Assembly: GCA_040506195.1 (NCBI GenBank)
Contig: JBEVXH010000010.1
Span: 16,993 to 80,992, forward strand
Source of the DNA: Candidatus Thiodiazotropha sp.
Lineage (GTDB): Bacteria; Pseudomonadota; Gammaproteobacteria; Chromatiales; Chromatiaceae
DNA: 64,000 bases
Direction: 5' to 3'
A model generated the notes under the pieces. It did no database searches. It worked only from the letters and a program-made list of their open reading frames with translations, and was not told the origin of the DNA. A program made the position numbers and the translations under genes. Shown here in pieces: positions 18,014-58,431 of the stretch. Numbering within the stretch: the stretch's first letter is position 1; the number at the start of each line of letters is the position of its first letter.

Positions 18014-18046
18014 ACACACCATCAGCGCAGTCATTCTGTCGGTGCT

Positions 18047-29037: not shown

Positions 29038-29124
29038 GCCGAGGTGGTGAAATTGGTAGACACGCTAGCTTCAGGTGCTAGTGGGGGCAACCCCGTGGAG
29101 GTTCAAGTCCTCTCCTCGGCACCA
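29038..29124 (+). tRNA. tRNA-Leu (CAG)
   Basis: GCCGAGG/CCTCGGC acceptor stem, anticodon arm CTAGC-TTCAGGT-GCTAG, long variable arm, GTTCAAG T-loop, encoded CCA. Confidence 0.97.
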
Positions 29125-30576: not shown

Positions 30577-30851
30577 TCCAGTGCGCGCAATAACTGAAAC
30601 ACCCATCAGTTGACCAGCTAAAGCAGCAGAACTGCTGACACACGCGGATTATCAGCGCACATGGCACTCTCTTTCTCTGTTATTGACACAATGATGTCAT
30701 AACTCATATCAGACAATCACGCATAATAAGATGCGCATCCCTCAGTTCTAAAGTATTTTCTACGAATGACGTTGCTTCCATCTTTTTCTTTTCAAGCTGG
30801 CCACGGAGCCAGTCCTGAGATCGGGATAGTTCGGGTTGCTGATCAGGATTT

Positions 30852-33800
30852 CTATTGCACGAGTTCATTCATTCGCTCTTGGAAATAGCTTGGGTATTTC
30901 TCCATCACCGCTTTGGCTCCACCCCGGGCTTGTTTCAGCGCCTTCACGAGATCCTTCTTCTGAGTCGCTGCCAGATTCAAGGATGCAGCGAGGTCCTGAG
31001 AGATAACACGGTCCGAAATGCCAAGCTCATAAAGGGCAACGGTGGTTTCCGTGGGCAGACCATATTTAAGGCGCTTTTGAAAAAGCTGCAGGCGATTGAC
31101 CAGGTCTCCGGTGCCGTCTTGGTCAAGTGTTTCAGTGAATTCACACAACGCACCTACCAGCAGCGCACCATCATATGCGAGCGTCCCTTCGCAGACGTCG
31201 ACAACATGATCGATCTTGAACTCCCTCCGTCGGGTACCCCATATCATTTTGGCTTTACGCTGACGGATGATTTCCAGTAAGTCTCTGAAAGGCAGCCCAC
31301 TGATCCATCCAAGCGCGATTTCCTTAAGCACCTCTGGTTTATCGAACTTTGTGAATACGCCGCTGTTGATATGCCGGGTGAGCAATGGCCAGAAAAGGTC
31401 GAGCGCTTCTGTTTCATCAACAATCGAAAGCAGGCGGTCAGCGTTGGCCTGAACCCATTCCTCAATGGCTTGGGCATCCTGAACACCATAAAGTGTTCTG
31501 CCATAGATTATACGGCGAGGCGGATCGGTGATGTTTGCGGAGATGTTCCCAGCGAGAAGCTGAAACAACTCGCGGATATGCTCTTTTTTCTGATCATCAG
31601 CCAGGAAGAAAGCAAGCGTACCTTCGGCTAGGCGGGTCACATCGGCCTCTGAAAGACCATCCTCCTTCTCATCCCAATGGGATAACAGGAAGCTCTCGAC
31701 GGCACAAATGAGGCTGATTCTCCATGCAACTTGCCGCTCAACACCGTCTCGTGAGAATCCTTTATCTCCATGTTGAGCAGCTATCCCGGCAGCGATCTGG
31801 GCAATTTCATCTGGGTTGCTGATGTAGCCCTTAGCAAAATCCAGAGCCTCCATGGTGATGGTGTATTTCTCGTCATCACTCTTGATGGGATCGAAGATCG
31901 ATAGGAGATTGCTGATGCATGGCTCCGAATTGTGCGGCTCCAGAAGTTCTTTCATCTGATCCCAGCGCCATTTGCCGTTACGGGCCTTCCGCTTGTCATA
32001 GATCACCGGATCTGCGAACAGGATACTGCCTTCGGTATGCATCCCGGCTCGGCCCGCTCGGCCAATGAGGTTGTGGAAATCGCGAACCTTGATGCGCTCC
32101 ATGCCCTGATAGACACTGGTCACGATGAGGTATCGAATCGGCAAATTTACGCCCTGTGCCAAAGTGGATGTGCAAACAACGAATCGCACAAGGTCGTCAC
32201 GCATGGCGTGTTCTACCGCCAGCCGGATACCGTGTGGTGTATTGCCATGATGGGAAAAAATACCATGTGCTGCGCTCTGGGATGCTGGGGCGTCAGCTCC
32301 GAGATTCTCAACGTGAAGATGAGTCAGGCACTCAACTTCCTGGGCGTCTGAAAAATCTGAAGGCAAAGCCAGAGGTGCGCCTCGCTCGATAACATCGACA
32401 GCCTTTTCACAGATGTTTGCCGCTGTCGACTTCCTCCCGCAGAAAACAGCGATGCTGCCATTCGGGACCAATTTCAGACCGAGGTAAAGCGCAATGGCCT
32501 GGCCATCATCTTTCTCTGGGAAGTAGCGGTCTTTCTGTTCTCTGCCTCTCCTCCCGAGATTGAATCGCTCAATCACCCTCGGAACGAAAAACTCGTTCTG
32601 TTCTGCGTCACGGCTGTCAACGTACTCGATCCTCCCCAACTGATCGAGCCAGCTCGCGAACCCGACCGACCTGAAAGTCGGAATCAGTGTAGTGCCTTCG
32701 ACGACATTAGGCTCGCCGTTCAGCCATTCGCCGACAGCCTCGGCATTGCTGATCACTGCCGATATCAGCACCTTTTGGGTTCCTGCAGGAATCATGGAGC
32801 GCAGAGATGTTAGGAGCAGCTCGTATGTTATGCCTCGCGTGCCGCTGTCAAACTGGTGGCCTTCATCAAAGACCAGCAACCCAACGTGGGCAGCCAGCTC
32901 CGGAGCGTGCCGAAGGACGTAGAGCAGCTTCTCGGGGGTTACAACCAGGATCTGTTGGTGCCCCAGGAGTTCGGCAATCTCGAAGTCGGTCTGTAGGGCA
33001 TCGGATAATTCATCAACCTTGGTGGGTTCGTTATTGAATGCTTCGACGAGGCTGTTCTTGATTTCATGGCATAGCGCCCTGAATGGAGCGATGATGATGG
33101 CCAGCGCTATGCGATCAGCCAGAAACGCGCTTCGAAGGATCAGTTCCGTTGCCTTCGTTTTGCCGGCGCTGGTGGGCATTTGAACGATGGCGGACTCGCC
33201 TTTGAGAACATCAGCCTTGCCCAAAAGGTGTTGCGCGGGCCAGAGCTCCTTGATGAAGGACTCCTTTTGCAGCGCATTTAACCATTTGTCGCGGGGCAGC
33301 CCGGAATATGACGGCAAAGCCTTCCAGACAGAATTTTCGAGTTTTTTCCTCAGAACGGCCGCAATCACATCACCAAATAGAAGCTGCCTTGGCGTGCCAA
33401 TTTCATAGACGGCGTCTCTCAGCTTCGTGGCTAAATCGAGAAGGTTGTCTTCACCATTCCCATCCTCGAAAAACTGGAGGAGCCATCGGGAAGTGCCGTC
33501 GAGAAATTCTCCAAAAGGTCCTTCAGCTCCGTCAAAATAGGTTTCGAGGTCGGCCTGCAACAACCAGAGCAACAGGTCTTCCAAGCCATCGCCATCCAGA
33601 TCTGGGCAGTCCTCATCGATGCGCTTCGCCAATACCGACGCGCTTCCGGGAAGATCGCACAGGTAATAGGAGGCAGAGCCCATAAGCACGAGGTATGGAT
33701 CAAGTGCCTCGTTCAGCTTTGATTGGAGGTAGGAGTCGAAAAAGCGGGCAGAAAAAAGCAGATTGGTTCTCAGCTCCGAGAGGGAGCCGGGATCTGGCTC

Positions 33801-33974
33801 CTCACGGTTGATGGCGGCGGCAAGGTCGCCCAGCAAACCAATCGAGATGGTGAAGAGCTTGGCCGGATCTTGGGTAATTTTGATGTGATGCTCTTCCGGA
33901 ACACCGTACTCGAGCATCTTGGCTTTTGACCTGGTGACGCCAAGCAGGAGTTGGGATTTCTGTTCAGGCCTCAT
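30852..33974 (-). CDS. hamB: Ski2-like DExH helicase, Hachiman HamB-like
   Basis: MPTSAGKT, DEGH, SAVISN, HHGNTP, TSTLAQGVNLP, NLIGRAGRAG; overlaps the upstream hamA-like gene. Confidence 0.8.
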   Translation of the reverse strand: MRPEQKSQLLLGVTRSKAKMLEYGVPEEHHIKITQDPAKLFTISIGLLGDLAAAINREEPDPGSLSELRTNLLFSARFFDSYLQSKLNEALDPYLVLMGSASYYLCDLPGSASVLAKRIDEDCPDLDGDGLEDLLLWLLQADLETYFDGAEGPFGEFLDGTSRWLLQFFEDGNGEDNLLDLATKLRDAVYEIGTPRQLLFGDVIAAVLRKKLENSVWKALPSYSGLPRDKWLNALQKESFIKELWPAQHLLGKADVLKGESAIVQMPTSAGKTKATELILRSAFLADRIALAIIIAPFRALCHEIKNSLVEAFNNEPTKVDELSDALQTDFEIAELLGHQQILVVTPEKLLYVLRHAPELAAHVGLLVFDEGHQFDSGTRGITYELLLTSLRSMIPAGTQKVLISAVISNAEAVGEWLNGEPNVVEGTTLIPTFRSVGFASWLDQLGRIEYVDSRDAEQNEFFVPRVIERFNLGRRGREQKDRYFPEKDDGQAIALYLGLKLVPNGSIAVFCGRKSTAANICEKAVDVIERGAPLALPSDFSDAQEVECLTHLHVENLGADAPASQSAAHGIFSHHGNTPHGIRLAVEHAMRDDLVRFVVCTSTLAQGVNLPIRYLIVTSVYQGMERIKVRDFHNLIGRAGRAGMHTEGSILFADPVIYDKRKARNGKWRWDQMKELLEPHNSEPCISNLLSIFDPIKSDDEKYTITMEALDFAKGYISNPDEIAQIAAGIAAQHGDKGFSRDGVERQVAWRISLICAVESFLLSHWDEKEDGLSEADVTRLAEGTLAFFLADDQKKEHIRELFQLLAGNISANITDPPRRIIYGRTLYGVQDAQAIEEWVQANADRLLSIVDETEALDLFWPLLTRHINSGVFTKFDKPEVLKEIALGWISGLPFRDLLEIIRQRKAKMIWGTRRREFKIDHVVDVCEGTLAYDGALLVGALCEFTETLDQDGTGDLVNRLQLFQKRLKYGLPTETTVALYELGISDRVISQDLAASLNLAATQKKDLVKALKQARGGAKAVMEKYPSYFQERMNELVQ

Positions 33975-34782
33975 CCGCAGCCCTCCTGTAGAGCTCGTGG
34001 ACGAGTACCATCATCTGTTCCCCTTTGATCACAATCAGCGCCAGGTCACCTGAATGCGGATGAGAGGAGGAATCAGTCGTGGATGTCAGGTCGTCGTCAA
34101 AAAGCGGATTCTCAAAAAGCGCTACAGCCCCATATACTTCCTTGTATGGATGATCCACTTCATTCTGGAAGCACTCGATTTTTTCGGCGTCATCAAGCTC
34201 ATTGCGGCCATGCAACCTTTGCTTAATGGCATTTAAAGATTCCGCCTTTCTGGCGATGTCTTTTGCCGAGCCATCTACTGCATCTTGAAGTCTGGCCTTG
34301 GCCTTCTTTCCTGAGAACTGTGCCTTCGATTCAAAAATTGCCAGCCTATCCTTCGAAGAGGCTTTGCCATCCTTGACGATATGAAAGCCGATTATGTCAC
34401 TGCCTTTGGTAGACTCATTCCGAATGGTCTTGTCACCGTAGCGTGTGCGTGGAACCCAGTAGCCAAGCAGGTATTCAAGAAAATCGGCAACCAGCACTTC
34501 TCCAAAGTCGCCAGCGCGGATACTTGGTCCTGGCGCATCTTTTGGGTCAGGGAATTTTATGGTGTTGAGATACTCTGCCCGAGTATACTTGTACCCCCTG
34601 CGCCAATAATCGATTTCGGTGTCAAAGCAGTAGTGATTTCGAAAGTGGTTTGCCCATGCGGAGAGTACTGCCTCGTCTTTCTCATGACGGAACTCCCAGA
34701 CTTCTACATCCTTACCGTCGACGGTTCTCAGTCGTTCGCCAGTGTCGACGAGCCATTTTATATGATCTGAAGTCCAAGGCAT
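33964..34782 (-). CDS. hamA: Hachiman HamA-like nuclease (DUF1837-like)
   Basis: GDFGEVLV...GSDIIGF...FESKA (PD-(D/E)xK-like); directly upstream of a large Ski2-like helicase. Confidence 0.78.
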   Translation of the reverse strand: MPWTSDHIKWLVDTGERLRTVDGKDVEVWEFRHEKDEAVLSAWANHFRNHYCFDTEIDYWRRGYKYTRAEYLNTIKFPDPKDAPGPSIRAGDFGEVLVADFLEYLLGYWVPRTRYGDKTIRNESTKGSDIIGFHIVKDGKASSKDRLAIFESKAQFSGKKAKARLQDAVDGSAKDIARKAESLNAIKQRLHGRNELDDAEKIECFQNEVDHPYKEVYGAVALFENPLFDDDLTSTTDSSSHPHSGDLALIVIKGEQMMVLVHELYRRAADEA

Positions 34783-34789
34783 TCGTACA

Positions 34790-36667
34790 TCATCTCGCTT
34801 TCAGATTTCCGCTGTTATTATCCCACTCCATAACACGGTGATCCCGTGTGGAAATCTTTACGGAGCTGTATCCGTATTTCCATTCTTCGTATCCCAGCGA
34901 AGAATAATCGTTGATATCGTCGGGCGTACCCTGCAAACGAAGAACATCGTCCTGATGGGAGTTGCGTGTAAAGTATTGAGAGGAAGTTGTGTTCGAACCT
35001 GGGGAGAGCCTAACCTTTAAGTTACCTTGATTGGTCCAGCTAATCACTCTGCGGTTATGCGTGGATATCTTAACGGAGCTATAACCATACTTCCATTCCT
35101 CGTAGCCGAGAGCGCTGTAGTCGTTAATATCATCAGGAGTTCCTTGGACTCGCAGCACATCATCTTGATGAGAACCTCGAGTGAAAACTGGCGAGGTTGT
35201 TGTGTTCCTGCCAGGCTGGAGTTGGACTTTCAGGTTGCCTTGATTTGTCCAACTCTGCACTCTCCGATCCTGGCTGGATATTTTTATAGAGCTATACCCG
35301 TATTTCCACTCCTCGTATCCGAGAGCACTATAATCATTGATGTCGTCAGGAGTGCCTTGAATTCTTAGGACATCATCTTGATGTGAACCGCGTGTATAAA
35401 AAGCAGATGATGTGACGTTGTTTCCTGGCAATAAGCGGACCTTCAAGTTGCCTTGATTGTTCCAGTTTAAAACTCGTCTGTTCTGGCTCGATAGCTTTAT
35501 AGAGCTGTAACCATATTTCCATTCCTGGTATCCAAGAGCAGTATAATCGTTGATGTCGTCTGGCCTGCCCTGAACTCGAAGCACCTCATCCTGATGCGAG
35601 CCACGAGTAAAGAAGCTTGCCGACGTTGTAGTGGCCACCGAAGAGGTGCTGGATCGTGCTTGCGCACTTGCCTTTCGCTGAGACGTAGATGGAGAGACGG
35701 TAGTCGGTTTATGTGCAGCCTTCGCTCTTCTGAGCGCACTCAGCAAATCTTGATCAATCCAACCATCCTGAGTAACACCAGCGTCACGCTGAAAAGCTTT
35801 CACGGCGGCAGCAGTCCGGCGACCATAATCTCCATCCACCGGCCCAGGTTTATACCCGAGGTCAGTCAGAAGCTGTTGAGCCTCTCTGGTGTATTGTGCA
35901 CTGGGCTTCTTGGGAGCACTACGGGTCGATGTGCCCGGTGAAACCGATGGATACGACGGTTGATACGAACCACCCAACTGTCTGGCCTCACGAACGGCCT
36001 CCGCGATAATCTGGCTCCGGTAAGGTTTTACATCACGCTCAGCTCGCGACTGGGAACCCTGACGATACCGATAGCTCCCACAGCGGCTATTGTAATCGTC
36101 AACGACTCGGTTGAACTTTCCGACCTCTGCATTGCTATCGATGACATCTCGCATCGCTTCAATGCGAATGCCCTCCCGGATACACCAGCGAATCTGCTGC
36201 ACGGAGAGCATCTTGTTGGTGCCGACTGAAGGCTTTGTATATTTCAATCCGGCGTTTTGAGCCGCGCCTGGGGTTCGGACCGCCTGAGCAGGGCTGCTCT
36301 GCGGGTAGTCGTAGCTCTGCGGTGATGATGGCGGATTGTACGAGGGCTTCTTGTTACTTTGTCCTCCATTGTTAATAAGCCATATCACAAATACGACGCC
36401 GACAATACCAAGAATCCATTTGCCGCCAGAACCGCCAGCGTTATTGCCAGAACTAACCGTTTCAATAGGTGGAGGCGTTCTTTTGGGCTTTCGCTCGGAT
36501 TCGGAGGTAGCTTTTTCCCGTTGAGGCTGCGGCGGTTGCTTAGGCGTTGAGGGCTTGGCCTCCTCTTTTGGTTCCGGGTTTATGGGCTCGTCGACACCAC
36601 TGACCTCGGAGGCCAGGTCTGAAAGCCCGGAGAAGCCTTTTTTATCCTTATCGTTATCGCCAGCCAT
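34790..36667 (-). CDS. Single-TM envelope protein with a peptidoglycan-binding domain and four 71-aa repeats
   Basis: TM WILGIVGVVFVIWLI; PG_binding_1-like LTDLGYKPGPVDGDYGRRTAAAVKAFQ; repeats TRGSHQDxVLRxQGxPDDINDY...EWKYGYSS. Start at MAGDND (36667). Confidence 0.8.
   Translation of the reverse strand: MAGDNDKDKKGFSGLSDLASEVSGVDEPINPEPKEEAKPSTPKQPPQPQREKATSESERKPKRTPPPIETVSSGNNAGGSGGKWILGIVGVVFVIWLINNGGQSNKKPSYNPPSSPQSYDYPQSSPAQAVRTPGAAQNAGLKYTKPSVGTNKMLSVQQIRWCIREGIRIEAMRDVIDSNAEVGKFNRVVDDYNSRCGSYRYRQGSQSRAERDVKPYRSQIIAEAVREARQLGGSYQPSYPSVSPGTSTRSAPKKPSAQYTREAQQLLTDLGYKPGPVDGDYGRRTAAAVKAFQRDAGVTQDGWIDQDLLSALRRAKAAHKPTTVSPSTSQRKASAQARSSTSSVATTTSASFFTRGSHQDEVLRVQGRPDDINDYTALGYQEWKYGYSSIKLSSQNRRVLNWNNQGNLKVRLLPGNNVTSSAFYTRGSHQDDVLRIQGTPDDINDYSALGYEEWKYGYSSIKISSQDRRVQSWTNQGNLKVQLQPGRNTTTSPVFTRGSHQDDVLRVQGTPDDINDYSALGYEEWKYGYSSVKISTHNRRVISWTNQGNLKVRLSPGSNTTSSQYFTRNSHQDDVLRLQGTPDDINDYSSLGYEEWKYGYSSVKISTRDHRVMEWDNNSGNLKAR
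34793..35617 (-). repeat. Four in-frame ~213-bp repeats encoding SmpA/BamE-like modules
   Basis: Four near-identical 71-aa units are visible in the translation; the last is slightly shorter. Confidence 0.9.
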
Positions 36668-36715
36668 GGGCTTCGTCCCCTTCCTTTTCGCACACAAATT
36701 TTATGCCGAGCTCCC

Positions 36716-37468
36716 TCATATAAACGTCACCCCCCAAGCGCCCAGGCCACCAATTCCTATGCACAAAAGAATCAACGGAGCACATCCTGAGTTTTTCTTC
36801 TTGGCGGGCAGCCCCGTTTCCGGGTGGCCATGAGCCTGTGCTAGGTCGCCGATCATCTTCGGCTGGCCGCTTACCCCCAACTGTCGACCCAGAATCTCGA
36901 AAAAGCTCCGTTTTACCGCCTGTGGGCTCATATCGTCCTCATATTCACCGAGGTTCAAGCGTGTCTCGCCGGTAAAGAGGCCGATCATCAGTGGCCCCAT
37001 TTTGCTACCACTTTCGTCTTGAAGGAGATCGCCAGCTTCGCTGTCGAGTATCCTGGCCAGCATGCCCATATCGGCCTGTTCAAGAGCAACAGTCATGATC
37101 GGCTGGTGCGATGGGCCGTGGGGATTCCTGTCGATCCGGTAGAAAACCGACATGGCGTAGTGATTGGTCATCCCCTGATACTCGGCCTTCTTCCGCTGCA
37201 TTTCCATGGTGAGATCAAGAACGGTCTTCGGCTTCTTCTGGAAAGTGAGGAAAAAATCACCCCAAACCCAGGTCTCACCATCATCGACGCTCGACCATGG
37301 GGCCGGAAGGGTTGGCCACTTCGTCAGTTCCAACAGGGCGAACACTGTGTTTTCTGGTGCTGATGGCTGCGGGCTGATCTGGTGAGACTGAGCCTGTGGG
37401 ATAGGTCGGGTATCCGAGGTCAGATCAGAAAGCCCGGTAAATCCGCGTTTGTTATCTTTGTCGTCCAT
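36716..37468 (-). CDS. Hypothetical protein with a C-terminal membrane anchor
   Basis: C-terminal hydrophobic CAPLILLCIGIGGLGAWGVTFI. N-terminus DKDNKRGFTGLSDLTS matches that of the next gene. Confidence 0.75.
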   Translation of the reverse strand: MDDKDNKRGFTGLSDLTSDTRPIPQAQSHQISPQPSAPENTVFALLELTKWPTLPAPWSSVDDGETWVWGDFFLTFQKKPKTVLDLTMEMQRKKAEYQGMTNHYAMSVFYRIDRNPHGPSHQPIMTVALEQADMGMLARILDSEAGDLLQDESGSKMGPLMIGLFTGETRLNLGEYEDDMSPQAVKRSFFEILGRQLGVSGQPKMIGDLAQAHGHPETGLPAKKKNSGCAPLILLCIGIGGLGAWGVTFI

Positions 37469-37474
37469 CGATCC

Positions 37475-39121
37475 TTACCCCCCCAAGAGACTGCTCAACC
37501 GATCTCCACTTCGTTTCCAGAACATACGGATAGCGGCCTCGAGAACGTGGATGTTATCCTCGTCCTGATACGAGAAGGCAGCAGCCAGTTTTTTGTCTTC
37601 CTTTTTTCCGATACAGAAAGCGCCAGCACCATTCCAGATCACTAGCTCCCCCCAGCGGCAAAAGATCCTTTCGTTACTGCCAAAGAGTTTTTTGCGCTCC
37701 AATTCCATTCCTAGATCACTCATAACGGTTGAACCAAAACGGTATTGTTTGCCATCACGCAGACCTTCCAGGTACTCCGTCAGCAAACGAACCCCAACTG
37801 CCTTCCACAAACATTCAATAAAGTTGGAATAGATTGCCTCCTTCTTCAGCTCGATGGAGCCATAATTGGAGCCGTTGCCGAAAACAATGCTGTAAGTTGT
37901 TCCGGTTGGAATGCCGTTGACAGAATGCCGTGTGCCGCCCCAACGGACTCGCGTAATTGAGTCAAGATCCCAGTGGCGTCCTTTCCACTCGATACCTTCT
38001 GGCGAAATTCGCAACTTATCCTTGAAGACAACTCCTACATCAGCCTCGTAAGTTATTTCTCTTCGCCACTCTTCAGCACTGTTCTTTGCATCCTCAATCA
38101 AACGATCGCGTTGTTCTGCAATGCCATCAAGTGCATCCGCATCCTCAGCAGTACGCTCGGCAACTTCAACAACCTCAGCGAAAACTTCCTGCAGCATATT
38201 CGTAAGTTGATGCGAGAAATCGAGCTTGCCGTGTTCGTTGAATATATGAATCGCCAGGTCACGAACCGTGCCAGCAACGCGGTGGCTTGCTTCGTGAGCA
38301 AGCCCTCGACTCATCGTACTGACCTGAATTGGCTGGGCGACGGCATCCCAGTTTTTCACAATCTGGATTAGCTGGTTCACCAAGGGTGCTATGGTCGAAT
38401 CGGACTGTTCTGCATCCACGGCAGCCCACAGTCGCTCGACCAAGGCTTTTATATTGTCTTCCTCCTTATCAAGGAATCCCTGAGCTTCTACTTCATACGA
38501 ATCAACAAGGTCGTCTATCAGAATCGGCCCGTGTTCCTCGCCGTCATTAGTCGCGGACTCAACGGCAAAGGTAACTGCCTTCACAAGTTCCTTTGGCGAA
38601 AGGTTATCGAGGGCCGACTTGATGACCTGGCGATAGTGCCTTCGCCGTTCCTGGATTGCAGATTCGACAGCTGAGAGGTCTGATACTTCTGGAAAACCGG
38701 AAACAATCCGTTCTTCGTTGATAATCACGCTCAACTCTTCGGGGTCGATGTCCTCAAATGCCCATGAAATTTCGAGAATCCATTCTGCTATGTAATCGGC
38801 ATTGTGGTCGGCCAAAAGAGCGAGGCCTGCCGCAAGCAGGTTAGCACGGGCAATTGACGACAGCTTATCGACAGCGAGCAGATCCATTGGCGAGGATTCG
38901 AGGAGCGAAAATACCTCTCCGGCCCTTTTTGGCCCGATGCCTGGCAGCCAGGCGACTTCAGCAGAGAGCCTCTTCCTCGGGTTGGTCAATTCCGAGCGAG
39001 CTTCCATAACCTCACTTGAATCAAGAAGCAGACTGCGTTCATCGGCCAGTTCCATGATCCGTCGACGGTTATCGCGGAGGCTGGCAGTCAAAATATGAAA
39101 AGGATTTTGTTGTAGGTCCAT
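37475..39121 (-). CDS. Protein with a degenerate J-domain-like N-terminus, helical core and C-terminal beta-rich (PH-like) domains
   Basis: NPFHIL...EARSELTNPRKR resembles J-domain helices I and IV, but HPD is missing; lies next to an Hsp70 gene. Confidence 0.55.
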   Translation of the reverse strand: MDLQQNPFHILTASLRDNRRRIMELADERSLLLDSSEVMEARSELTNPRKRLSAEVAWLPGIGPKRAGEVFSLLESSPMDLLAVDKLSSIARANLLAAGLALLADHNADYIAEWILEISWAFEDIDPEELSVIINEERIVSGFPEVSDLSAVESAIQERRRHYRQVIKSALDNLSPKELVKAVTFAVESATNDGEEHGPILIDDLVDSYEVEAQGFLDKEEDNIKALVERLWAAVDAEQSDSTIAPLVNQLIQIVKNWDAVAQPIQVSTMSRGLAHEASHRVAGTVRDLAIHIFNEHGKLDFSHQLTNMLQEVFAEVVEVAERTAEDADALDGIAEQRDRLIEDAKNSAEEWRREITYEADVGVVFKDKLRISPEGIEWKGRHWDLDSITRVRWGGTRHSVNGIPTGTTYSIVFGNGSNYGSIELKKEAIYSNFIECLWKAVGVRLLTEYLEGLRDGKQYRFGSTVMSDLGMELERKKLFGSNERIFCRWGELVIWNGAGAFCIGKKEDKKLAAAFSYQDEDNIHVLEAAIRMFWKRSGDRLSSLLGG

Positions 39122-39133
39122 ACTCCCCTCCAG

Positions 39134-40603
39134 TTACTCGTCGTCCCAGACGAACCCGATGCGTCTGCTTTTCTTTTCTATTTCTTTAGGCAGACTGTTC
39201 AATGCGGCATCGATACTTTCCTGATCAAGCTGCGTCTTCCCGGACTTGGCAGCAAGCCGTGCGGCCTCACGTATAACAAAAGCCGAATCGGAGAGAGCCT
39301 TACCCGTGAGTGCATCGAGAATCTTGTCCAGGTTAAGGTCATCAGATGTCGGCAGCTTGCTCAATAGTGAGTCGACCAGAGACGACACTTCTTCCCTCGA
39401 CGGCATACCGACTTCAATGATGTGGTCGAAACGCCCGCGACGCAGAATGGCCGGATCGATCATTTCGATCATGTTCGTCATGGCGACTAATAGCACCTTG
39501 TTCTTGATGGCTTCGGGAATGCGTCGAAGGAACTCGGCAACCTCTTCAACATGATGCAATCCTGACGAGCTGCCAGATTTCCTATCCGTGAGGAAAGACT
39601 CCATCTCATCAATGACGACCACGGACGGAGCGCCATCAATCGCCGTATCGAAAACCTCAGAGATCTTCTTACTGGTTTCGTGAATATAGGGGCTGCCAAC
39701 GCTGCTGGAATCAATCGAGTAACTGGGCCAATCGATAAATTCGACAAGCCGTTCCACGGCGAAGGTCTTGCCACATCCCGGGGGTCCATGCAGGACGATG
39801 GCTGAAGGGAAATCAATGCCCAGAGCCTGATATTTCTCCGCATTAAAGATGATGTCGATGACGTGTTCGTTAAAAAATTCCTCGAGGTGAGGTCGCCCTG
39901 GAAGTTTGAATATCTTGGATTCGGCCATATCCCCAGGCGATTGTGGCTTTTCAGGTTCGACAGCCTCCTTCGCAGTGGCAGTCTTTGCATCGCTCCGGGA
40001 TTGAGAAGCCGGCTTGCGCTTAGCCAGTAGTCCAGCGTCTGCAGGTACAGCAAACCCGGCAGCGTTTATGATTTCCGCCAGATCACCAGCGGGCATCCAG
40101 CCGGTCAGACTGGTCAACCGCCTGAAGGATTCAGTTGATATGACGACCCCACCGGTAATCCAGGTGCCCAAGACCACCTCATCATCTACGTGGGGTGTCA
40201 GCGTCCAGCCCGGGAGCAATCTGGAGTACTGCTCCACATAAACGGCATCATGGAAAGAGGCACCCTCTGACAATTTCCGGGACTCTTTGAGCGCGAACGC
40301 AAAGGCTATTGCATCGACCTTGCTTTCCGGTGATTTCCCATTCTCAACCGGCGTAAATGCGTACTTCTTATGGCTGCACATACTCCGGAATGATTCACCC
40401 CCGAAAGCGACATCTTCGAACAGGGATTCATCGAGAAAACCGAATTCATTCCACTTCTGCGCCAGCTCTGGACACATAAGCAGGATATTGTTCGAGCCAT
40501 TGGTATCGAATATCTGCCACTCGTCTCCTGAATAGAGGAGCGACCGGACATTCGATCCGTCCGGCAATTCATACCCTTTAGGTAGCCATAAGTCCTTCGC
40601 CAT
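39134..40603 (-). CDS. AAA+ ATPase with an unknown N-terminal domain
   Basis: GPPGCGKT, VVVIDEME, DPAILRRGRFD (second region of homology), C-terminal RRIGF. Confidence 0.9.
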   Translation of the reverse strand: MAKDLWLPKGYELPDGSNVRSLLYSGDEWQIFDTNGSNNILLMCPELAQKWNEFGFLDESLFEDVAFGGESFRSMCSHKKYAFTPVENGKSPESKVDAIAFAFALKESRKLSEGASFHDAVYVEQYSRLLPGWTLTPHVDDEVVLGTWITGGVVISTESFRRLTSLTGWMPAGDLAEIINAAGFAVPADAGLLAKRKPASQSRSDAKTATAKEAVEPEKPQSPGDMAESKIFKLPGRPHLEEFFNEHVIDIIFNAEKYQALGIDFPSAIVLHGPPGCGKTFAVERLVEFIDWPSYSIDSSSVGSPYIHETSKKISEVFDTAIDGAPSVVVIDEMESFLTDRKSGSSSGLHHVEEVAEFLRRIPEAIKNKVLLVAMTNMIEMIDPAILRRGRFDHIIEVGMPSREEVSSLVDSLLSKLPTSDDLNLDKILDALTGKALSDSAFVIREAARLAAKSGKTQLDQESIDAALNSLPKEIEKKSRRIGFVWDDE

Positions 40604-40606
40604 GAA

Positions 40607-43102
40607 TCATCCCCTGATAATGTTGGCCACATCGAACATCTCGTTGTCGGGGCCGCCACCGATTTGAATCATCGAAAGCTGGGCAACCACGGCACGAAGT
40701 TTTTCAATATCATCGGAGCGCATGAGTTGCGTGCCGACCTGGGCGAGTTCCTCGAAACGGTGCTTGTCCGCAAACAGGTGGGGCGAACTGACCATCCATT
40801 TGAACCGCTCGACCACGAACCAGTCTTGCCGCCAAAGGATCTCGAAGTTTTTGCCTTTCAGTTCATCAAGGTGATGCTCGAAATCTTTATCGTTTCGGTC
40901 GATTGAGCGTTGAGCCGTCTTCGCCAGGTTGTCGAAGCCCGACGCTTCGGACGGACGGGCATGCTGCCGGATATGCTCATCGAAGAAGGTCACCACACCG
41001 TCAAGGTCTATCTGACGAATTTCCTTGAGGTGCTCCTTACGTACTTGTGCAAGGAGCCGCCGCGCCTCAAGCACCTTCTCCATAGCCTCCTGGGAGTTCT
41101 CGGTCTCCGCTTCCTCAGGATCGAGGGAGGCAGCGGATTCAAGCTTCTGACGTGCTTGATCCAGTTTCGGGTTGTCCACCACGTCGTTGATCTCGTCGAT
41201 ACGGTTCAGTGTCCGTTCACCCTCCTCGACAACCATGGCGGCGGCCGCGGTGTAATCGAGCTGCCCCTCCTGGCGGGAATAGAAATTCTTCCCGGAATGG
41301 AAGGTCCCGCCGATGCAGGGCACGGATACTTCGATGATGATGTTGCCGGAATCCAGAATCTCGTATTCGCAAGCCAGATCGGCGCCGGCCGGAATTACGC
41401 CGTCGTCAAAATCGGAGCCGGAAATCTTCAAGACGCCGACGGGGCGGTTATCGGTAATAGGGTCTTCGATTTCTCCTTCCCAAAGCGCAAAGTTCAATGA
41501 ACCAGTTGACCCTGCCTTGAGCGATTCGGCCGCCTTGAAGGTCTTACTCCCCCTCTTCGGTAACGAATCACCGGATTTCACCAAATATTCCAGCACCTGT
41601 GGTCCGCCCACCTTATCCAGAACGGCGATAGCGATTGAGTGTGAGGCCGGGATGGCATCCACCGTGGCGGCGGTTCGGGTAATGACGATGCTGTCCTGTT
41701 CCAGGGCGATGGGGCCACCCACGGAATCGAACACGAATACTTTGAAGGTGTTTTCGCCGGTTTTTGTCAGACTAACGTCGAGGGTTGCCCCGTGTTTGAG
41801 CGGCATGCGGCCGGAGGTCCAGCCGGTGTCGACGCTATCGATCTGGAATTCTGAGCCGGACGCAGCCTGGCCCGCCAATTGAACTGCAATCTTGGCCTTA
41901 ACATCCGGAGTGCGGGCGATGTAATTGAAAGACAGTTCCAACCCGCCTCCAGAAGAAATCTGCCCACGGGTGTTCTTGCGAGAACGGTTCTGGGACCCCC
42001 AGTCAATCGACTCCGCAAACAGGCTCGCACCTTCCGCCACGGCTGTCATTGGGTTTACATCGGTGCTTCCCGGAATACCCAGCTCGAATGCAACCTTGTC
42101 TCGCAGCATTTTGTAGTTGGTCGGGCCACCAACGAACACGATGCGCTCCAGGTCATGCGGTGAAAGACCGGCCTTATTGAGTGTCTCTCGTGCAGACTCG
42201 ATTGACTCACCGACGCGTTCGGCAATCAGCTTGTCGTATGTATCACGCTGCAAGGGAATATCAAGATAGACCTCATTGTCGCTGAGATCCCGTACCCGGG
42301 CCTCGGTTTCCGACAGACTGATGACCGAATCCTCGCGTGCCGAAAGTTCAATCTTGGCGCGTTCGGTGGCCCAGGTGGCCAGCCGAATGAGCGACTTGAA
42401 GCTGGGGTTCACGGAAAAGTCTTCCGGGAGGTCGAAGTTTTCCAGCAGCCAGGGGCGTACAACATTATCGACGAGCACGCGGTCGAAATCCCGGCCACCA
42501 CACATGGCAATACCGCCGTGAGCGAGGAGATTAACCCGTCCACCGAGGCTTTCAGCAATAGCGATATCCAGTGTGCCGCCACCCAGGTCGTAAATCAGGA
42601 ACATACCGTCGGTATTGCGGGCGCGCATAACACTCATGACTGCAGCGACCGGTTCCTGCATTAGCGCAACCTTGCCGAGACCGGCCATGCTGGCGGCCTG
42701 CATGGTGGCATCCTTCTGCATCTGGTTAAAAGCAGCAGGAACGGTGATGACGGTTCCGGTATCCGGATCGTTTCGGATTTCCTCAGGCAGGTAACCGAAC
42801 TGAACTTTTAGAATTTCCGCCGAGCACTCTTCCGGAGTCATTGTCATGTTGACCGCCGGAAGATTGATTGGCGTACTGGTACCCATCAACCGCTTGAAAA
42901 GCATCGCAGAGTTGTCCGGGCTTTGCGGCGCCATGTTGTATGCGTTAAAACCAATCTGCTTGTTACCGCGCCTGTCGATATAGATCGCCGAGGGAGTAAC
43001 ATCGTTTTGCTGTGGACTCTTCCACACCCGCGTATCGGAACCGTCATAGGAACAGATTGCGCTGTTTGTTGTACCCAGGTCTATGCCAACGAAATTTTTC
43101 AT
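40607..43102 (-). CDS. Atypical Hsp70-family protein (831 aa)
   Basis: GIDLGTTNS, FKRLMG, TVPAAF, QEPVAA, DLGGGTLD, VGGPT, AVAEGA. An extra domain precedes the SBD-like region. Confidence 0.92.
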   Translation of the reverse strand: MKNFVGIDLGTTNSAICSYDGSDTRVWKSPQQNDVTPSAIYIDRRGNKQIGFNAYNMAPQSPDNSAMLFKRLMGTSTPINLPAVNMTMTPEECSAEILKVQFGYLPEEIRNDPDTGTVITVPAAFNQMQKDATMQAASMAGLGKVALMQEPVAAVMSVMRARNTDGMFLIYDLGGGTLDIAIAESLGGRVNLLAHGGIAMCGGRDFDRVLVDNVVRPWLLENFDLPEDFSVNPSFKSLIRLATWATERAKIELSAREDSVISLSETEARVRDLSDNEVYLDIPLQRDTYDKLIAERVGESIESARETLNKAGLSPHDLERIVFVGGPTNYKMLRDKVAFELGIPGSTDVNPMTAVAEGASLFAESIDWGSQNRSRKNTRGQISSGGGLELSFNYIARTPDVKAKIAVQLAGQAASGSEFQIDSVDTGWTSGRMPLKHGATLDVSLTKTGENTFKVFVFDSVGGPIALEQDSIVITRTAATVDAIPASHSIAIAVLDKVGGPQVLEYLVKSGDSLPKRGSKTFKAAESLKAGSTGSLNFALWEGEIEDPITDNRPVGVLKISGSDFDDGVIPAGADLACEYEILDSGNIIIEVSVPCIGGTFHSGKNFYSRQEGQLDYTAAAAMVVEEGERTLNRIDEINDVVDNPKLDQARQKLESAASLDPEEAETENSQEAMEKVLEARRLLAQVRKEHLKEIRQIDLDGVVTFFDEHIRQHARPSEASGFDNLAKTAQRSIDRNDKDFEHHLDELKGKNFEILWRQDWFVVERFKWMVSSPHLFADKHRFEELAQVGTQLMRSDDIEKLRAVVAQLSMIQIGGGPDNEMFDVANIIRG

Positions 43103-43479
43103 CGTTCCACCTTCCTTAAAGTGACGGTTCCTGTCTTAACCAAACCTTCTTTCCCCATGATGATCGGCTCGAGCATCTGATCGACCATCAAGGCATCCTT
43201 CGTATCGAACTCGTCGATATTGAGGGGCGTGGCGGCCATTCCCGAATCGAAGGCATGACCCTCGACATTTACGATTCTCAAATCCGCTCGTTCCAGGGCC
43301 TCTTCGACCTTTTTGATGAACCAACGGAACTGGCTCTTGTACCGATTCTGTTCCCCGGCATCGAGCTTCAACAGCAGACGATCAAACACCCGACCGAAGC
43401 GCCAGGACTCCACTGCCATACTGATCACCGCATCCCGCATGGCCTCGGGGGTCATTGTGGTTTGTTCAGAGTCCGCCAT
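43099..43479 (-). CDS. GrpE-like protein
   Basis: EEALERADLRIVNVEGHAFDSG...QMLEPIIM...LVKTGTV parallels the GrpE beta-domain. ATGA overlap with the Hsp70 gene; start at 43479 has a GGAG RBS. Confidence 0.6.
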   Translation of the reverse strand: MADSEQTTMTPEAMRDAVISMAVESWRFGRVFDRLLLKLDAGEQNRYKSQFRWFIKKVEEALERADLRIVNVEGHAFDSGMAATPLNIDEFDTKDALMVDQMLEPIIMGKEGLVKTGTVTLRKVER

Positions 43480-43505
43480 ATTTTTCTCCGTGTTCATTAA
43501 AATTC

Positions 43506-46487
43506 TTAGTAGTACTGCCGGATGTATCCGAATGCCTTGTCAAACAGGTCCTGATCCTTGATCTTGTATTTGACGTAAATCACCTTGCGCAGCGCTTTCT
43601 GCACTTCACGTTCTCCTGCCTTGGTGTCCTGCCAACCCGGAAAGCGAACCAGACGCACAATCTCGTCGATGTCGGCCACAATCCGCTCGACCACGACCGG
43701 CGTCTTGCCGCTCTTCACCTCAACGAACAGCTCGGTCAAAGCCGCTTTCGCCTTCGCCTGTTCATCGACGGGGTCCACCCGCTTCTCGGCCTGAACGACC
43801 TCCTTGGCCAGAGTCAGCAGCTCCTTGAGAAAATCGATGCTGTGCAGCAGCCCCTGTTCATGCCGTTCTTTCAGCTTTTCGAGACGCTCGCCCAGGGCTA
43901 CGAACTTCGGGTTGTCCTTGTGCTTGCGCAATCGGGCAATAATCTTGATCTCGATCTCCTTGGATTTTTTCTCCGGGTCCTTGGCATCGAGCAATCCCTC
44001 AAGCACTTCGGCGTCCATCACCAGGGTGTCTAAATCGTCCCGCACGGTTTCCAGGTGGACATTTTCGTGGACCAGTTCGATGGTCTTTGCCCCAAGCGTA
44101 TGCCAGAGCAGTTTGCCGTTACCGCTCGGCGGTTTTACCGATTCATAGATCTGGGTCAGCCATTTGTAGTCGGTTTGGTAGGGCCCCAGGCAGGGGTCTG
44201 GGGACAATGCCTCCCAGAGACGGGAGAGCACTGAGTATTCAGCCGCAAACCTGTCCCGGGTCTCGTTATCCGGCAGGCAGTCCTGCGCCGCAATCAGTCC
44301 CTCGTAGCCGCCGACGGTGCGGTCCACTCCGGGGAAGAACGCCAGACATTTCGCCACCACGCCCGGCAGTTCTTTCTTGAGGTCATCCAGGTTGGTGATG
44401 ACCTTCTGCACCGCTTTCTCGTCGAAATCGAGTGCCGTGGCCACGTCGTCGAAGATGCCGAGGTAGTCCACGATCAGGCCATGGGTCTTGCCGGTATAGA
44501 CGCGGTTGGTTCGGCAGATCGCCTGCAGCAGGTTGTGGTCCTTCATCGGTTTGTCCAGATACATGACCTGCAAAATCGGCGCATCGAATCCGGTCAGCAG
44601 CTTGGAGGTGACGATCAGGAATTTGAGCGGGTCTTCAGGATCCCGGAATCGATCCAGCAGCTCCTCCTCTTCATCCTTGGAAAGTTTCCACTCGGCAAAT
44701 GCGTCCGACTTGCCGCCCTGGGTATGCATGACAATGGCACTTGCCTCTGGGCCGACCAGCTCGTCCATGGCCTTCTTATAGAGCACGCAGCATTCCCGGT
44801 CGAAGGTCACCACCTGGGCCTTGAAACCGTTCGGCTCGACCTTGTCCCGGTAGTGATTGACAATGTGCTGGCAGATGGCCTGCACACGGGCCGGGGCCTT
44901 GATCAGCACCGCCATTTTGGCGGCCCGCCTGGCCAGGTCATCCTTATCCTCTTCGCTCAACTGGTCGGTCATCTGAGCATAGGCTTCGTCGATGGCATCC
45001 TTATCGATGTGCAGTTTTACGTCCACGGCCTCAAAGTGAAGCGGCAACGTGGCCTTGTCCCGGATCGAGTCCTGGAACGAGTAGCGGCTCATGTAGCCTT
45101 GCTCATCTTCATCCGCGCCGAATGCCCAGAAGGTGTTACGGTCCCGCTTGTTGATCGGCGTGCCGGTCAAGCCAAAGAGGAAAGCATTGGGCAGCGCATC
45201 TCGCATCTGGCGACCCAGATCACCTTCCTGGGTGCGGTGCGCCTCGTCCACCATCACAATGATGTTCGGGCGCTCGTTCAGGCGGCCGCCCGCCTCGCCG
45301 AACTTGTGAATGGTGGTGATGATGATCTTGCGGGTATCGGCTGCCAGCAGGCTTTGTAGTTCCTGTCGAGTAGCGGCCCCGATCATGTTTGGGATATCGG
45401 CGGCGTTGAAGGTGGCGGTGATCTGGGTGTCCAGGTCGATGCGGTCCACCACGATCATCACCGTGGGGTTGCCGAGCTTGCGATGCATCCGCAGCTTCTG
45501 CGCCGCGAACACCATCAGAAGCGACTTGCCCGAGCCCTGAAAGTGCCAGATCAGGCCCTTCTTGGGATACCCCTTGACCACACGGGCGACCATCAGATTC
45601 GCGCCTTCGTACTGCTGATAGCGGCAGATGATCTTGATGCGGCGGTGTTTCTTGTCGGTGGCGAACAGGGTAAAGTTCTGTAGGATGTCCAGCACCACAT
45701 GGGGTCGCAGCATGGAACGGATGGAGCGCTGCACGTCTGCAAGGGTCCCCTCGGCCTTGTTGTCACCTTCGTGCCACGGCCCCCAGATATCGATGGGCAT
45801 GCGCACCGAGCCGTAGCGATAGCACTTACCCTCGGTAGCAAAGGAGAGGACGTTGGGTACGAACATCTGCGGCACGCTCTGTTCGTAGCCGTTGTGGATG
45901 TCGCTGGCCCCGTCCACCCAGGTCACCGCCGGGCGCACCGGCGTCTTGGCCTCGCCGATCACCAGTGGGATGCCATTGACCAGCATGATGATGTCGAAGC
46001 GCCGGCCACCCTCCTTGACCGGATAAACCCACTGGTTGGTGACCACGTAGTCGTTATTGCTCAGGTTCTCGAAGTCAATCAGGCGCACCGGCGTGTGTTC
46101 GCCGCGTTCACCGAAGGGCATGGACTTCTCACCCCGCAGCCATTCGGCGAACAGCTCGTTGGCCCGCACCAGTCCTTCGCTCTGTACCGACAGAGGAATG
46201 GTTCGCAGGCGATAGAGCACCTCGTCGGCGCGGTCAGGCTGGGCCTTGATTTCCGGATTCAGGCGGATGAGGGCCTCGCGTACCACCGACTCCACCAGTA
46301 CATCAGAGTGTTGGCGTGGTAATTCCTCGGCGGATACGAAACGCCATTTAAGGCTTGTAATCTGAAGGGTGAGGTGTGAATCAAGATAATCAGTCTGCGG
46401 CTCAGCAACGCACCACTGATTGTCCTTGTCAGACAGCGTGTCCAGCACGAGTTGTTCAACTGTATTTTCCTCATTGAAATAGGTCAT
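43506..46487 (-). CDS. hsdR: Type I restriction enzyme R subunit
   Basis: FDIIMLVNGIPLVIGEAK nuclease motif, HFQGSGKS, DEAH, LLTGFDAP. Confidence 0.95.
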   Translation of the reverse strand: MTYFNEENTVEQLVLDTLSDKDNQWCVAEPQTDYLDSHLTLQITSLKWRFVSAEELPRQHSDVLVESVVREALIRLNPEIKAQPDRADEVLYRLRTIPLSVQSEGLVRANELFAEWLRGEKSMPFGERGEHTPVRLIDFENLSNNDYVVTNQWVYPVKEGGRRFDIIMLVNGIPLVIGEAKTPVRPAVTWVDGASDIHNGYEQSVPQMFVPNVLSFATEGKCYRYGSVRMPIDIWGPWHEGDNKAEGTLADVQRSIRSMLRPHVVLDILQNFTLFATDKKHRRIKIICRYQQYEGANLMVARVVKGYPKKGLIWHFQGSGKSLLMVFAAQKLRMHRKLGNPTVMIVVDRIDLDTQITATFNAADIPNMIGAATRQELQSLLAADTRKIIITTIHKFGEAGGRLNERPNIIVMVDEAHRTQEGDLGRQMRDALPNAFLFGLTGTPINKRDRNTFWAFGADEDEQGYMSRYSFQDSIRDKATLPLHFEAVDVKLHIDKDAIDEAYAQMTDQLSEEDKDDLARRAAKMAVLIKAPARVQAICQHIVNHYRDKVEPNGFKAQVVTFDRECCVLYKKAMDELVGPEASAIVMHTQGGKSDAFAEWKLSKDEEEELLDRFRDPEDPLKFLIVTSKLLTGFDAPILQVMYLDKPMKDHNLLQAICRTNRVYTGKTHGLIVDYLGIFDDVATALDFDEKAVQKVITNLDDLKKELPGVVAKCLAFFPGVDRTVGGYEGLIAAQDCLPDNETRDRFAAEYSVLSRLWEALSPDPCLGPYQTDYKWLTQIYESVKPPSGNGKLLWHTLGAKTIELVHENVHLETVRDDLDTLVMDAEVLEGLLDAKDPEKKSKEIEIKIIARLRKHKDNPKFVALGERLEKLKERHEQGLLHSIDFLKELLTLAKEVVQAEKRVDPVDEQAKAKAALTELFVEVKSGKTPVVVERIVADIDEIVRLVRFPGWQDTKAGEREVQKALRKVIYVKYKIKDQDLFDKAFGYIRQYY

Positions 46488-49069: not shown

Positions 49070-49202
49070 GGAGTAACCCTCCTTGGTTTCTATTGCATGC
49101 ACCGCCGTAACTGGCGAGCTTTTCGGCAACCATGTTCGAAGTTACGCCCTCGCAGAGCGTGTCGAGAACCATCTGTTCGACCGTGTTTTCTTCGTTAAAC
49201 AT
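49059..49202 (-). pseudogene. Vestigial 47-codon copy of the hsdR 5' end
   Basis: Manual translation gives MFNEENTVEQMVLDTLCEGVTSNMVAEKLASY..., versus functional HsdR MTYFNEENTVEQLVLDTLSDKDNQWCVAEPQTDY. Confidence 0.85.
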
Positions 49203-58421: not shown

Positions 58422-58431
58422 GGCTAATCCG

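Follow-up and report, generated by a model that had tools for sequence, protein, structure and literature searches.

A six-gene Hsp70 cassette with tagged envelope proteins in Candidatus Thiodiazotropha sp., a candidate mobile conflict system

Comparison with described chaperone and defence systems

Hsp70 is among the best studied of protein machines. Besides the canonical DnaK-DnaJ-GrpE set and ClpB, E. coli possesses HscC, a specialised Hsp70 with the tail-anchored J-type partners DjlB and DjlC, the physiological role of which is unclear. Here we describe a locus that recalls both arrangements and departs from each of them. It lies at positions 34790-43497 of a 64,000-nucleotide stretch of DNA from Candidatus Thiodiazotropha sp. 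(contig JBEVXH010000010.1), the whole of which is referred to below as the window, where calling of open reading frames (ORFs) gives six co-directional genes on the minus strand, p1-p6, between a type I restriction-modification (RM) system and Hachiman. The six genes form a coherent cassette that is widespread, highly mobile and, to all appearances, undescribed. Two of the products, p5 and p6, share a short N-terminal motif that we call the tag.

43099-43497, minus strand: p1, 132 residues, mini-GrpE
40607-43102, minus strand: p2, 831 residues, divergent Hsp70
39134-40603, minus strand: p3, 489 residues, classical-clade AAA+ ATPase
37475-39121, minus strand: p4, 548 residues, adaptor with a J-like N-terminus that lacks HPD
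36716-37468, minus strand: p5, 250 residues, tagged and tail-anchored, a variable member of the cassette
34790-36697, minus strand: p6, 635 residues from a TTG start, tagged single-pass membrane protein

The genes are closely packed. The hsdR stop lies 8 bp ahead of p1, p1 and p2 overlap by 4 bp, and the following gaps measure 3 bp (p2 to p3), 12 bp (p3 to p4), 6 bp (p4 to p5) and 7 bp (p6 to hamA). The p5 to p6 gap is 18 bp with the TTG start of p6 and 48 bp with the ATG at 36667, which is used by relatives and is likely to be the true start (625 residues). These coordinates, together with the PADLOC and Pfam assignments, agree with a first-pass annotation made from the letters alone, which had described six co-directional, tightly joined genes between type I RM and Hachiman. 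The identical gene order recurs in dozens of unrelated genomes, and the arrangement is therefore not due to chance.

Like the canonical set with ClpB, the cassette combines an Hsp70 with intact ATPase motifs, a translationally coupled GrpE fold, J-like helices and an AAA+ ATPase alongside. It differs in that the J-like domain lacks the H and P of HPD and the Hsp70 lacks the residues equivalent to DnaK R167, N170 and T173. In comparison with DnaK, p2 carries an insert of about 115 residues between the nucleotide-binding domain (NBD) and the linker and a helical C-terminus of about 230 residues, while p1 is without the long N-terminal helix of GrpE. ClpB has two AAA+ modules and an M domain, whereas p3 has a single classical AAA module and no Clp family match. 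The proposed clients of the cassette would be defined, tagged membrane proteins, and the genes reside on mobile accessory DNA beside the host set; the host genome keeps its own DnaK, GrpE, DnaJ and HscA. With HscC the cassette shares the specialised Hsp70 and its J-type partner. Unlike p4, however, DjlB and DjlC keep HPD, and HscC, at about 556 residues, has no dedicated GrpE, AAA+ ATPase or tagged clients.

Zorya also couples an inner-membrane peptidoglycan-binding component to cytoplasmic ATPases, but the cassette has neither the MotAB-like ZorA/ZorB nor ZorC/ZorD, and none of the six proteins has a Zor match in PADLOC. IetAS includes IetA, a related classical AAA+ module. The IetA match is limited to residues 247-471 of p3, the score of p3 against NCBIfam IteA is 86 bits with a cut-off of 510, and neither IetS nor a protease domain is present among the six proteins.

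Hsp70 proteins have been recruited into predicted immunity operons before. The GAP1-N2 GTPase systems, predicted to be conflict systems, contain HSP70 and GrpE with a DnaJ-FNIII protein (PMC7159879), and CoCoNuT operons contain CnuD, an Hsp70-like protein whose ATPase motifs are degenerate (PMC11090510), in contrast to the invariant motifs of p2. As far as the portions of the two accounts on which we draw extend, these systems are built on GTPases, with or without tubulin, or on McrBC GTPases and HEPN nucleases, none of which occurs in the cassette; in the same portions, neither has the AAA+ ATPase, the p4 adaptor, the N-terminal tag or the peptidoglycan-binding membrane partners. They nevertheless support the view that conflict systems may use chaperones as switches. 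Fusions of DnaK-like domains to EACC1-protease modules (PMC12642450) and the HSP70-like switch domains mentioned in 10.64898/2026.10.19.760177 are, in the passages concerned, unlike the cassette in composition. The toxin-antitoxin-chaperone (TAC) systems have a defence role, and in them a dedicated chaperone recognises its partner by a short peptide that is conserved (10.1101/2024.02.24.581848). According to the part of that source used here, their chaperone is SecB-like and ATP-independent, their tag is on a cytoplasmic antitoxin and they have a defined toxin, whereas no toxin has been identified in the cassette.

Searches with the individual proteins led to the same result. In PADLOC v2.0.0 there was no match for p1, p2, p5 or p6 and one marginal match of p4 to SngA (E value of 0.003); p3 matched only the generic AAA models IetA (E value of 9e-28) and TRIP13, so that no described system was recovered. 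PHROGs gave only generic Hsp70, AAA and endolysin-type peptidoglycan-binding matches. The public records name the proteins 'Hsp70 family protein', 'ATP-binding protein', 'FtsH' or 'hypothetical', and no description of the cassette was found in the full-text literature, subscription-only papers being outside the scope of the search. The statement in the first-pass annotation that no named defence system has this composition is in keeping with these results.

The chaperone core

The p1 protein has no match in Pfam or PADLOC. A profile hidden Markov model search of p1 against PDB sequences retrieved no GrpE, unlike the profile-profile and fold searches. In hhalign the p1 family aligned with GrpE (31 sequences) over residues 34-132 of p1 and 98-198 of GrpE with a probability of 83.5% and an E value of 8e-6; the controls, a J-domain alignment and a reversed GrpE alignment, gave 0.1%. 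The AlphaFold2 (AF2) model of p1 (predicted local distance difference test, pLDDT, 90.7) comprises two long helices and a C-terminal β domain, and each of the top 11 PDB matches that Foldseek gives for it is a GrpE or GrpEL1 chain (best E value 2e-3, probability up to 1.0). By profile and predicted fold, p1 is a minimal GrpE and the putative dedicated exchange factor of p2.

In p2 the NBD matches PF00012 with an E value of 2e-52 and aligns with DnaK over residues 2-361. The catalytic residues D8, K70, E150 and T177 correspond to D8, K70, E171 and T199 of DnaK and are invariant in 82-83 of 83 relatives; judged by these residues, p2 is an ATPase-competent Hsp70. The NBD (residues 1-364) is separated by the insert (about 365-480) from a linker-like TVDAIP (480-485), which is followed by a putative β part of the substrate-binding domain (SBD-β; about 487-598) and the helical C-terminal part (about 600-831). 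Residues 487-598 span the whole of SBD-β (DnaK 396-494) in hhalign with an E value of 1.6e-4, at a probability of only 50% and with a single-sequence template. Neither the insert nor the C-terminal part has a credible Pfam match at E <= 1. The protein falls under all NCBIfam Hsp70 subfamily cut-offs, with 193 bits for DnaK (cut-off 648) and 186 bits for HscA (cut-off 620), both matches being confined to the NBD.

The p3 protein has only one AAA module, at residues 269-399 (PF00004, E value of 5e-27), in which Walker A (GPPGCGKT, G273-T280), Walker B (D332-E333), a pore-loop-like PYIH (305-308) and an arginine-finger sequence (RRGRFD at 388) can be recognised. In NCBIfam it comes closest to PAN, FtsH and Cdc48, each with a score well under the cut-off, and the N domain (1-245) has no Pfam match at E <= 1. 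We assign p3 from these motifs as a classical AAA+ ATPase of the unfoldase type.

The p4 protein consists of a J-like N-terminus (about residues 5-60), a helical domain extending to residue 356 and two modules of β structure plus helix (358-455 and 460-537). Its AF2 model has a pLDDT of 92.8. The fold is called novel because a Foldseek search of the PDB with the whole model returned nothing at E <= 1e-3, and the middle and C-terminal parts gave nothing credible in Pfam at E <= 1. The first 55 or so residues matched the J domain in hhalign with a probability of 69.7% and an E value of 4e-5 (controls 0.4-1.2%), and the helix pattern of the model in this region fits a J domain. The position of HPD is occupied by L32-L33-D34, and by two hydrophobic residues followed by D or N in 41 of 41 relatives. 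As far as profile and model indicate, p4 is an adaptor of novel fold with a J-like N-terminus that lacks HPD. The family is large, with 1885 clusters at 50% identity. In many members a zinc-ribbon module of about 125-300 residues (CxxC...CxxC) stands ahead of the J-like domain, as in P0025, P0041, P0022 and the Tn7-borne version at L001:15384-17414.

The other side of the putative interface is also altered. In p2 the residues A146, Q149 and V152 replace DnaK R167, N170 and T173, which we take to be the residues that contact the HPD motif of DnaJ, and the replacement holds in 78-83 of 83 Hsp70s of the family. Going by these alignments, the canonical J/Hsp70 interface is changed on both partners; as both faces are changed, we read the change as insulation from the host DnaK, DnaJ and GrpE. 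The first-pass annotation had identified p1-p4 as a GrpE-like protein, an Hsp70 with intact ATPase motifs, an AAA ATPase and a J-like protein without HPD, all of which the comparisons above bear out; it did not mention the replacement on the Hsp70 side.

Tagged membrane proteins and their coupling to the core

The likeness between p5 and p6 is limited to their N-termini (KRGFTGLSDLTSD and KKGFSGLSDLASE), where both carry the tag. Across the family the common motif is [KR]-G-F-[SA]-G-L-x-x-[LM]-x-S-[DE], in which the residues G, F and G are invariant.

37409-37444, minus strand: tag of p5, residues 9-20, with GFTGLSDLTS at 9-18, fitting the family motif
36602-36637, minus strand: tag of p6, GFSGLSDLASEV

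A six-frame scan of the 4.5-Mb host genome found the motif in p5 and p6 only. In related loci the tag heads 85 ORFs, one to three per locus, almost all of which are co-directional with and downstream of the AAA gene. It is placed at residues 6-19 and is followed by a low-complexity linker and a transmembrane (TM) helix at about residues 75-85, or by a tail anchor. When the tag was masked, 87 tagged proteins fell into 11 unrelated groups, among which the p6 type was dominant (61 of the 87). Pfam recognised PG_binding_1 in 32 of 73 tagged proteins, with PG_binding_2, SLT, BamE and SH3 occurring occasionally. Because one tag heads 11 unrelated groups of proteins, we infer that a single short peptide links the conserved core to envelope proteins that vary. 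The shared tag had been missed in the first reading of the sequence.

The p6 protein is a type II single-pass membrane protein. The tag and a low-complexity linker precede the TM helix (residues 94-108), after which come a two-cysteine periplasmic domain (about 147-240), PG_binding_1 (271-322; E value of 1e-15) and four repeats of about 70 residues (362-635) that begin at residues 362, 433, 504 and 575. The two-cysteine domain (IRWC...YNSRCG) has nine invariant columns across 20 diverse members. It has no relative in the PDB by sequence, where only weak coiled-coil-type matches were obtained, and no credible Pfam match at E <= 1. The p5 protein has a hydrophobic C-terminal anchor at residues 230-250 and no Pfam, PADLOC or PHROG match, its cytoplasmic part being blank in Pfam at E <= 1 as well. 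Homologues of p5 occur in only 11 of the 88 loci compared, and its 90% cluster has 282 members, including some from Vibrio and Shewanella. The C-anchored membrane protein of the first-pass annotation, and the single TM helix, peptidoglycan-binding domain and four repeats that it ascribed to the last gene, were thus all found.

The p6 repeats (34793-35635, minus strand) gave a summed Pfam match to Tox-URI2 with an E value of 2.6e-4 and 21.7 bits. We regard this identity as spurious, there being no single stretch that passes. One tagged relative matches BamE with an E value of 2e-14, and the repeats are probably BamE-like periplasmic modules.

The distribution of the tag follows the architecture of p4. 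Of 54 loci with a soluble p4 protein, 50 contain tagged ORFs, and the few exceptions look degraded or truncated. Degraded copies are seen in L032 and L049, where a transposase-like ORF or short fragments stand in place of the AAA gene and the tagged genes are missing. Where the N-terminal domain of p4 (p4N) has a TM helix of its own, tagged ORFs are absent in nine of 12 loci. Such TM-bearing versions, often with a p6-type periplasmic domain after the TM helix, are found in L006, L029, L037, L041 and L061 and in Poribacteria, p4N being fused to the p6-type domain itself in L006, L041 and L061. In addition, one database protein of 1078 residues, P0067, has a near-complete canonical DnaK, with LLLDVTPLSLGIE linker and lid, N-terminal to a complete p4-type domain. 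The fusions of p4N to a TM helix in loci without a tag, and that of Hsp70 to p4 in P0067, suggest a chain running from the periplasmic domain through the TM helix and the tag or a covalent link to the J-like adaptor and on to Hsp70.

Since lineages with a J-like domain fused to the TM and periplasmic part mostly do without the tag, we propose that it would act as a docking peptide joining the membrane proteins to the soluble core of p4, Hsp70 and AAA+ ATPase. The C-terminal β modules of p4 were considered as the receptor, an idea that found no support, as loci L026, L035 and L042, in which p4 has the N domain only, still contain tagged proteins. In the Nitrospirales locus L014 both tagged genes (15636-16526 and 16584-18206) have R for the second G of the tag (GFSRLTDL and GFSRLSDL), a paired change that could serve as a handle for a compensating change in the receptor.

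Distribution, genomic setting and proposed role

Among about 185,000 species representatives, 273 contain relatives of p2, and the cassette is spread over more than 12 phyla. The best 80 of the 273 have 65-98% identity and come from Gammaproteobacteria, Betaproteobacteria, Desulfobacterota, Acidobacteriota, Nitrospirota, Verrucomicrobiota, Bacteroidota, Chloroflexota, Latescibacterota, Hydrogenedentota, Poribacteria and others. Protein identities of 80-98% extend to Acidobacteriota, Nitrospirales, Desulfobacterota, Verrucomicrobiota, Bacteroidota, Chloroflexota and others. We compared 80 genome loci and eight plasmid loci (88 in all), together with the nine IMG/VR contigs that contain the cassette. 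In the 88 loci p1 is present in 83, p2 in 88, p3 in 75, p4 in 72 and a p6-type membrane protein in 62, and p1, p3, p4 and the p6-type gene accompany p2 in nearly every locus of sufficient length. The first-pass annotation had asked for co-conservation of all six genes: this applies to p1-p4 and to the p6 type, but not to p5, in place of which other tagged proteins occur. Its picture of a private chaperone cycle with an unfoldase agrees with the identification of p1, p2, p3 and the J-like p4 and with their common conservation in 72-88 of the 88 loci. Its further suggestions, of a periplasmic cell-wall sensor and of an action that takes phage complexes apart, are conjecture.

Carriage is equally varied. 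On plasmids of Shewanella and Aeromonas the cassette is carried as cargo within Tn7-like transposons. A conjugative plasmid of Polaromonas has it about 4 kb away from a Zorya operon, and a further copy is found on a Vibrio rumoiensis plasmid. A complete six-gene copy at L163:3685-12376 (Logan contig SRR35353156), the p5 sequence of which is annotated as Vibrio cholerae, lies between a 79-residue HTH_73 gene and traF-traH-traG, followed by FlhC/FlhD-like (SetCD-like) genes, with neither RM nor Hachiman beside it; this position corresponds to hotspot 3 of the SXT/R391-like family of integrative and conjugative elements (ICEs) (PMC2791158). A megablast search of complete E. coli genomes gave no match. 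The DNA homology of the window to other cassettes ends at about 43484-43495, within about 10 bp of the start codon of p1, which leaves the cassette without a conserved promoter region. From the identity of 80-98% across phyla, the start of the homology at p1 and the carriage on ICEs, Tn7-like elements and plasmids, all of them features of sequence, the six genes are one horizontally mobile cassette that moves between phyla. In Sinorhizobium, Aminobacter, Pseudomonas and Haliscomenobacter there are more distant versions, which retain the Hsp70 along with the small protein and a gene like p4N and adjoin Gabija-like, TaqI-like or BREX genes.

The combined setting of type I RM and Hachiman is found here and in five other genomes, from different orders; the short junction to Hachiman, of 3-7 bp, recurs only in L009, L010, L012, L021 and L030. 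The placement between RM and Hachiman to which the first-pass annotation drew attention is confined to one sublineage of six genomes and is not a trait of the family. Elsewhere the neighbours include RM, McrBC, Zorya, BREX, Gabija-like, TaqI-like, TmtA, helicase and nuclease genes. In a narrow BLAST panel RM, Hachiman or similar neighbours were found at six of 47 loci and at one of 106 control windows, a figure that is a lower bound and in which several positive loci share ancestry. PADLOC and Pfam tallies of the flanking genes list the 25 commonest families and give no clean enrichment figure.

In our view it is an evenly balanced judgement that the cassette is a mobile, self-contained, rewired Hsp70 machine at the inner membrane and most likely a conflict or defence system. 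The changed J/Hsp70 interface would insulate the machine from the host DnaK and DnaJ. On the periplasmic side the tagged proteins often present a peptidoglycan-binding domain, with about 60 residues between the tag and the TM helix, and upon an envelope event the ATPases would remodel or extract the tagged proteins or their bound partners. The output might be the tagged membrane proteins themselves, or the unfoldase acting on proteins of the invader. In the present genome the junctions predict co-transcription with the type I restriction system and Hachiman. Taken by itself, a role in anti-phage or anti-mobile-element conflict, with an abortive-infection variant included, has a slightly better than even chance; defence is thought likely because of the embedding between RM and Hachiman, the defence neighbours, the gene-collecting elements and hotspots and the high-identity spread between phyla. 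We are more tentative, and lean somewhat against it, with regard to the strongest form of this idea, in which the cassette would be the first of its kind, an immune or conflict system driven by Hsp70: an insulated mobile engine, consisting of Hsp70, mini-GrpE and HPD-less adaptor with a Cdc48/PAN-like AAA+ ATPase in most lineages, plugged by the 12-residue docking peptide or by fusion into interchangeable envelope-spanning proteins that sense, or execute a response to, the entry of phages or plasmids at the cell wall.

Several observations weigh against this interpretation. Many flanking genes are housekeeping genes, and clear defence neighbours are found at a minority of loci. No effector domain, whether nuclease, protease or other, was recognised in the six proteins by Pfam or PADLOC. 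The contrast between soluble and TM-bearing p4 has a Fisher p of 3e-6 with loci counted regardless of shared ancestry, and three loci with TM-bearing p4 keep their tagged proteins. On the side of the core, the SBD-β match of p2 is a weak point, given its probability and template, and the J-like assignment of p4 amounts to a 49-column profile match at 70% and a predicted helix topology, J proteins being absent from the Foldseek matches of the whole p4 model. Promoter and terminator scans returned fewer sites than shuffled sequence and were hence uninformative.

The alternative that survives best, although we consider it unlikely, is that the cassette has no part in immunity and is an element-borne device of envelope proteostasis or assembly, which inserts, matures or quality-controls its own peptidoglycan-anchored proteins. 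Envelope adaptation, surface or entry exclusion, conjugation support and stress tolerance would then be its possible services. Such a device would suit the facts that every output protein is an envelope protein and that many of the adjoining genes do not belong to defence systems. In eukaryotes, moreover, Hsp70 and AAA proteins have tail-anchored and type II membrane proteins among their classic clients. An element-borne device would equally suit carriage on ICEs, conjugative plasmids and Tn7-like elements, with tra genes adjoining in L163 and in the window, but copies of the cassette occur as well on elements that are not conjugative and in variable regions of chromosomes where tra genes are lacking. 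Nor would one expect it inside a defence operon, as here and in five other genomes with junctions of 3-8 bp, and its rapid spread between phyla at 80-98% identity is typical of conflict cargo.

It is rather less probable still that the cassette is a chaperone-addicted abortive-infection or toxin-like module, in which Hsp70 and the AAA+ ATPase restrain latent toxic effectors, the tagged proteins, that would kill or arrest the cell when a phage overloads or blocks the chaperones. Classical AAA+ ATPases extract or unfold their substrates, there is no other effector domain in the cassette and two tagged relatives have SLT lytic transglycosylase domains, but the dominant p6-type family combines peptidoglycan binding with small helical domains and has no known toxin fold. 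The short conserved peptide on variable membrane proteins finds a parallel in the ChAD element of TAC, to the extent that this is set out in the part of the source used (10.1101/2024.02.24.581848); against this, the covalent presence of the J-like domain in a membrane protein in the fused variants fits a stable complex better than a degradation substrate. It is very improbable that the cassette is no autonomous system but serves the neighbouring Hachiman or type I RM as an accessory sensor or regulator: junctions of 3-7 bp to hamA in six genomes of different orders, and the lack of a conserved promoter region with homology beginning at the p1 start, would accord with it, but the cassette is complete without Hachiman or RM in the majority of the 80 genome loci and in every plasmid, Tn7 or SXT-like copy, and Hachiman is known as a complete two-gene system, with full-length HamA and HamB matches in PADLOC here.

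To our knowledge, no mobile and dedicated Hsp70 machinery has been described that brings along an exchange factor, an adaptor with a J-like domain but without HPD, an unfoldase and membrane clients addressed by a peptide. Should the cassette prove to be an immune system, ATP-driven protein remodelling at the membrane would join the mechanisms of defence as a new engine, and the cassette would also constitute a compact natural orthogonal Hsp70 circuit, the J/Hsp70 interface being altered on either partner. Thanks to the conserved tag it can be tested directly what binds the tag and what becomes of the tagged proteins during infection. Even if it is not a defence system its function matters for the biology of mobile elements, in view of the size of the family, its near-unchanged spread between phyla and its presence on elements in Vibrio, Shewanella and Aeromonas.

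The remaining genes of the block and its surroundings in the window are as follows.

43506-46487, minus strand: hsdR, type I restriction (PF04313, PF18766; PADLOC REase_I, E value of 3e-129), the directly upstream neighbour, outside the cassette
46484-49129, minus strand: DinG/Cas3-like helicase, 881 residues (PADLOC candidate PDC-S28, E value of 1.5e-111)
49195-50376: hsdS of the type I RM system
52120-53637 and 50373-51917, minus strand: tandem pair of hsdM genes, both N6_Mtase and HsdM_N
56503-61453, minus strand: TraG_N, TraU and DUF1525 genes, ICE transfer genes on the upstream side
61804-63030, plus strand: IS91-family transposase, on the same side as the transfer genes
33964-34782, minus strand: hamA of Hachiman (PADLOC HamA, E value of 8e-117), directly downstream of the cassette
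30852-33974, minus strand: hamB of Hachiman (PADLOC HamB, E value of 0), after hamA
29329-30606, minus strand: ORF of 425 residues between hamB and tRNA-Leu
29038-29124, plus strand: tRNA-Leu(CAG), just past Hachiman

With transfer genes on one side and tRNA-Leu on the other, the block of RM, Hsp70 and Hachiman genes has the appearance of ICE cargo placed at the end nearest the tRNA, the other end of the element being outside the window. The 425-residue ORF has no Pfam match at E <= 1e-3, no integrase-type domain being detected in it, and could be a further gene of the island. The type I RM operon itself has two peculiarities. Two hsdM genes are seen with only one hsdS and one hsdR, and the extra hsdM may be a remnant or belong to a second type I system. 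The DinG/Cas3-like helicase gene stands between hsdS and hsdR, overlapping hsdR by 4 bp, and the RM operon may thus have received an inserted single-gene candidate defence system, the PDC-S28-like helicase.

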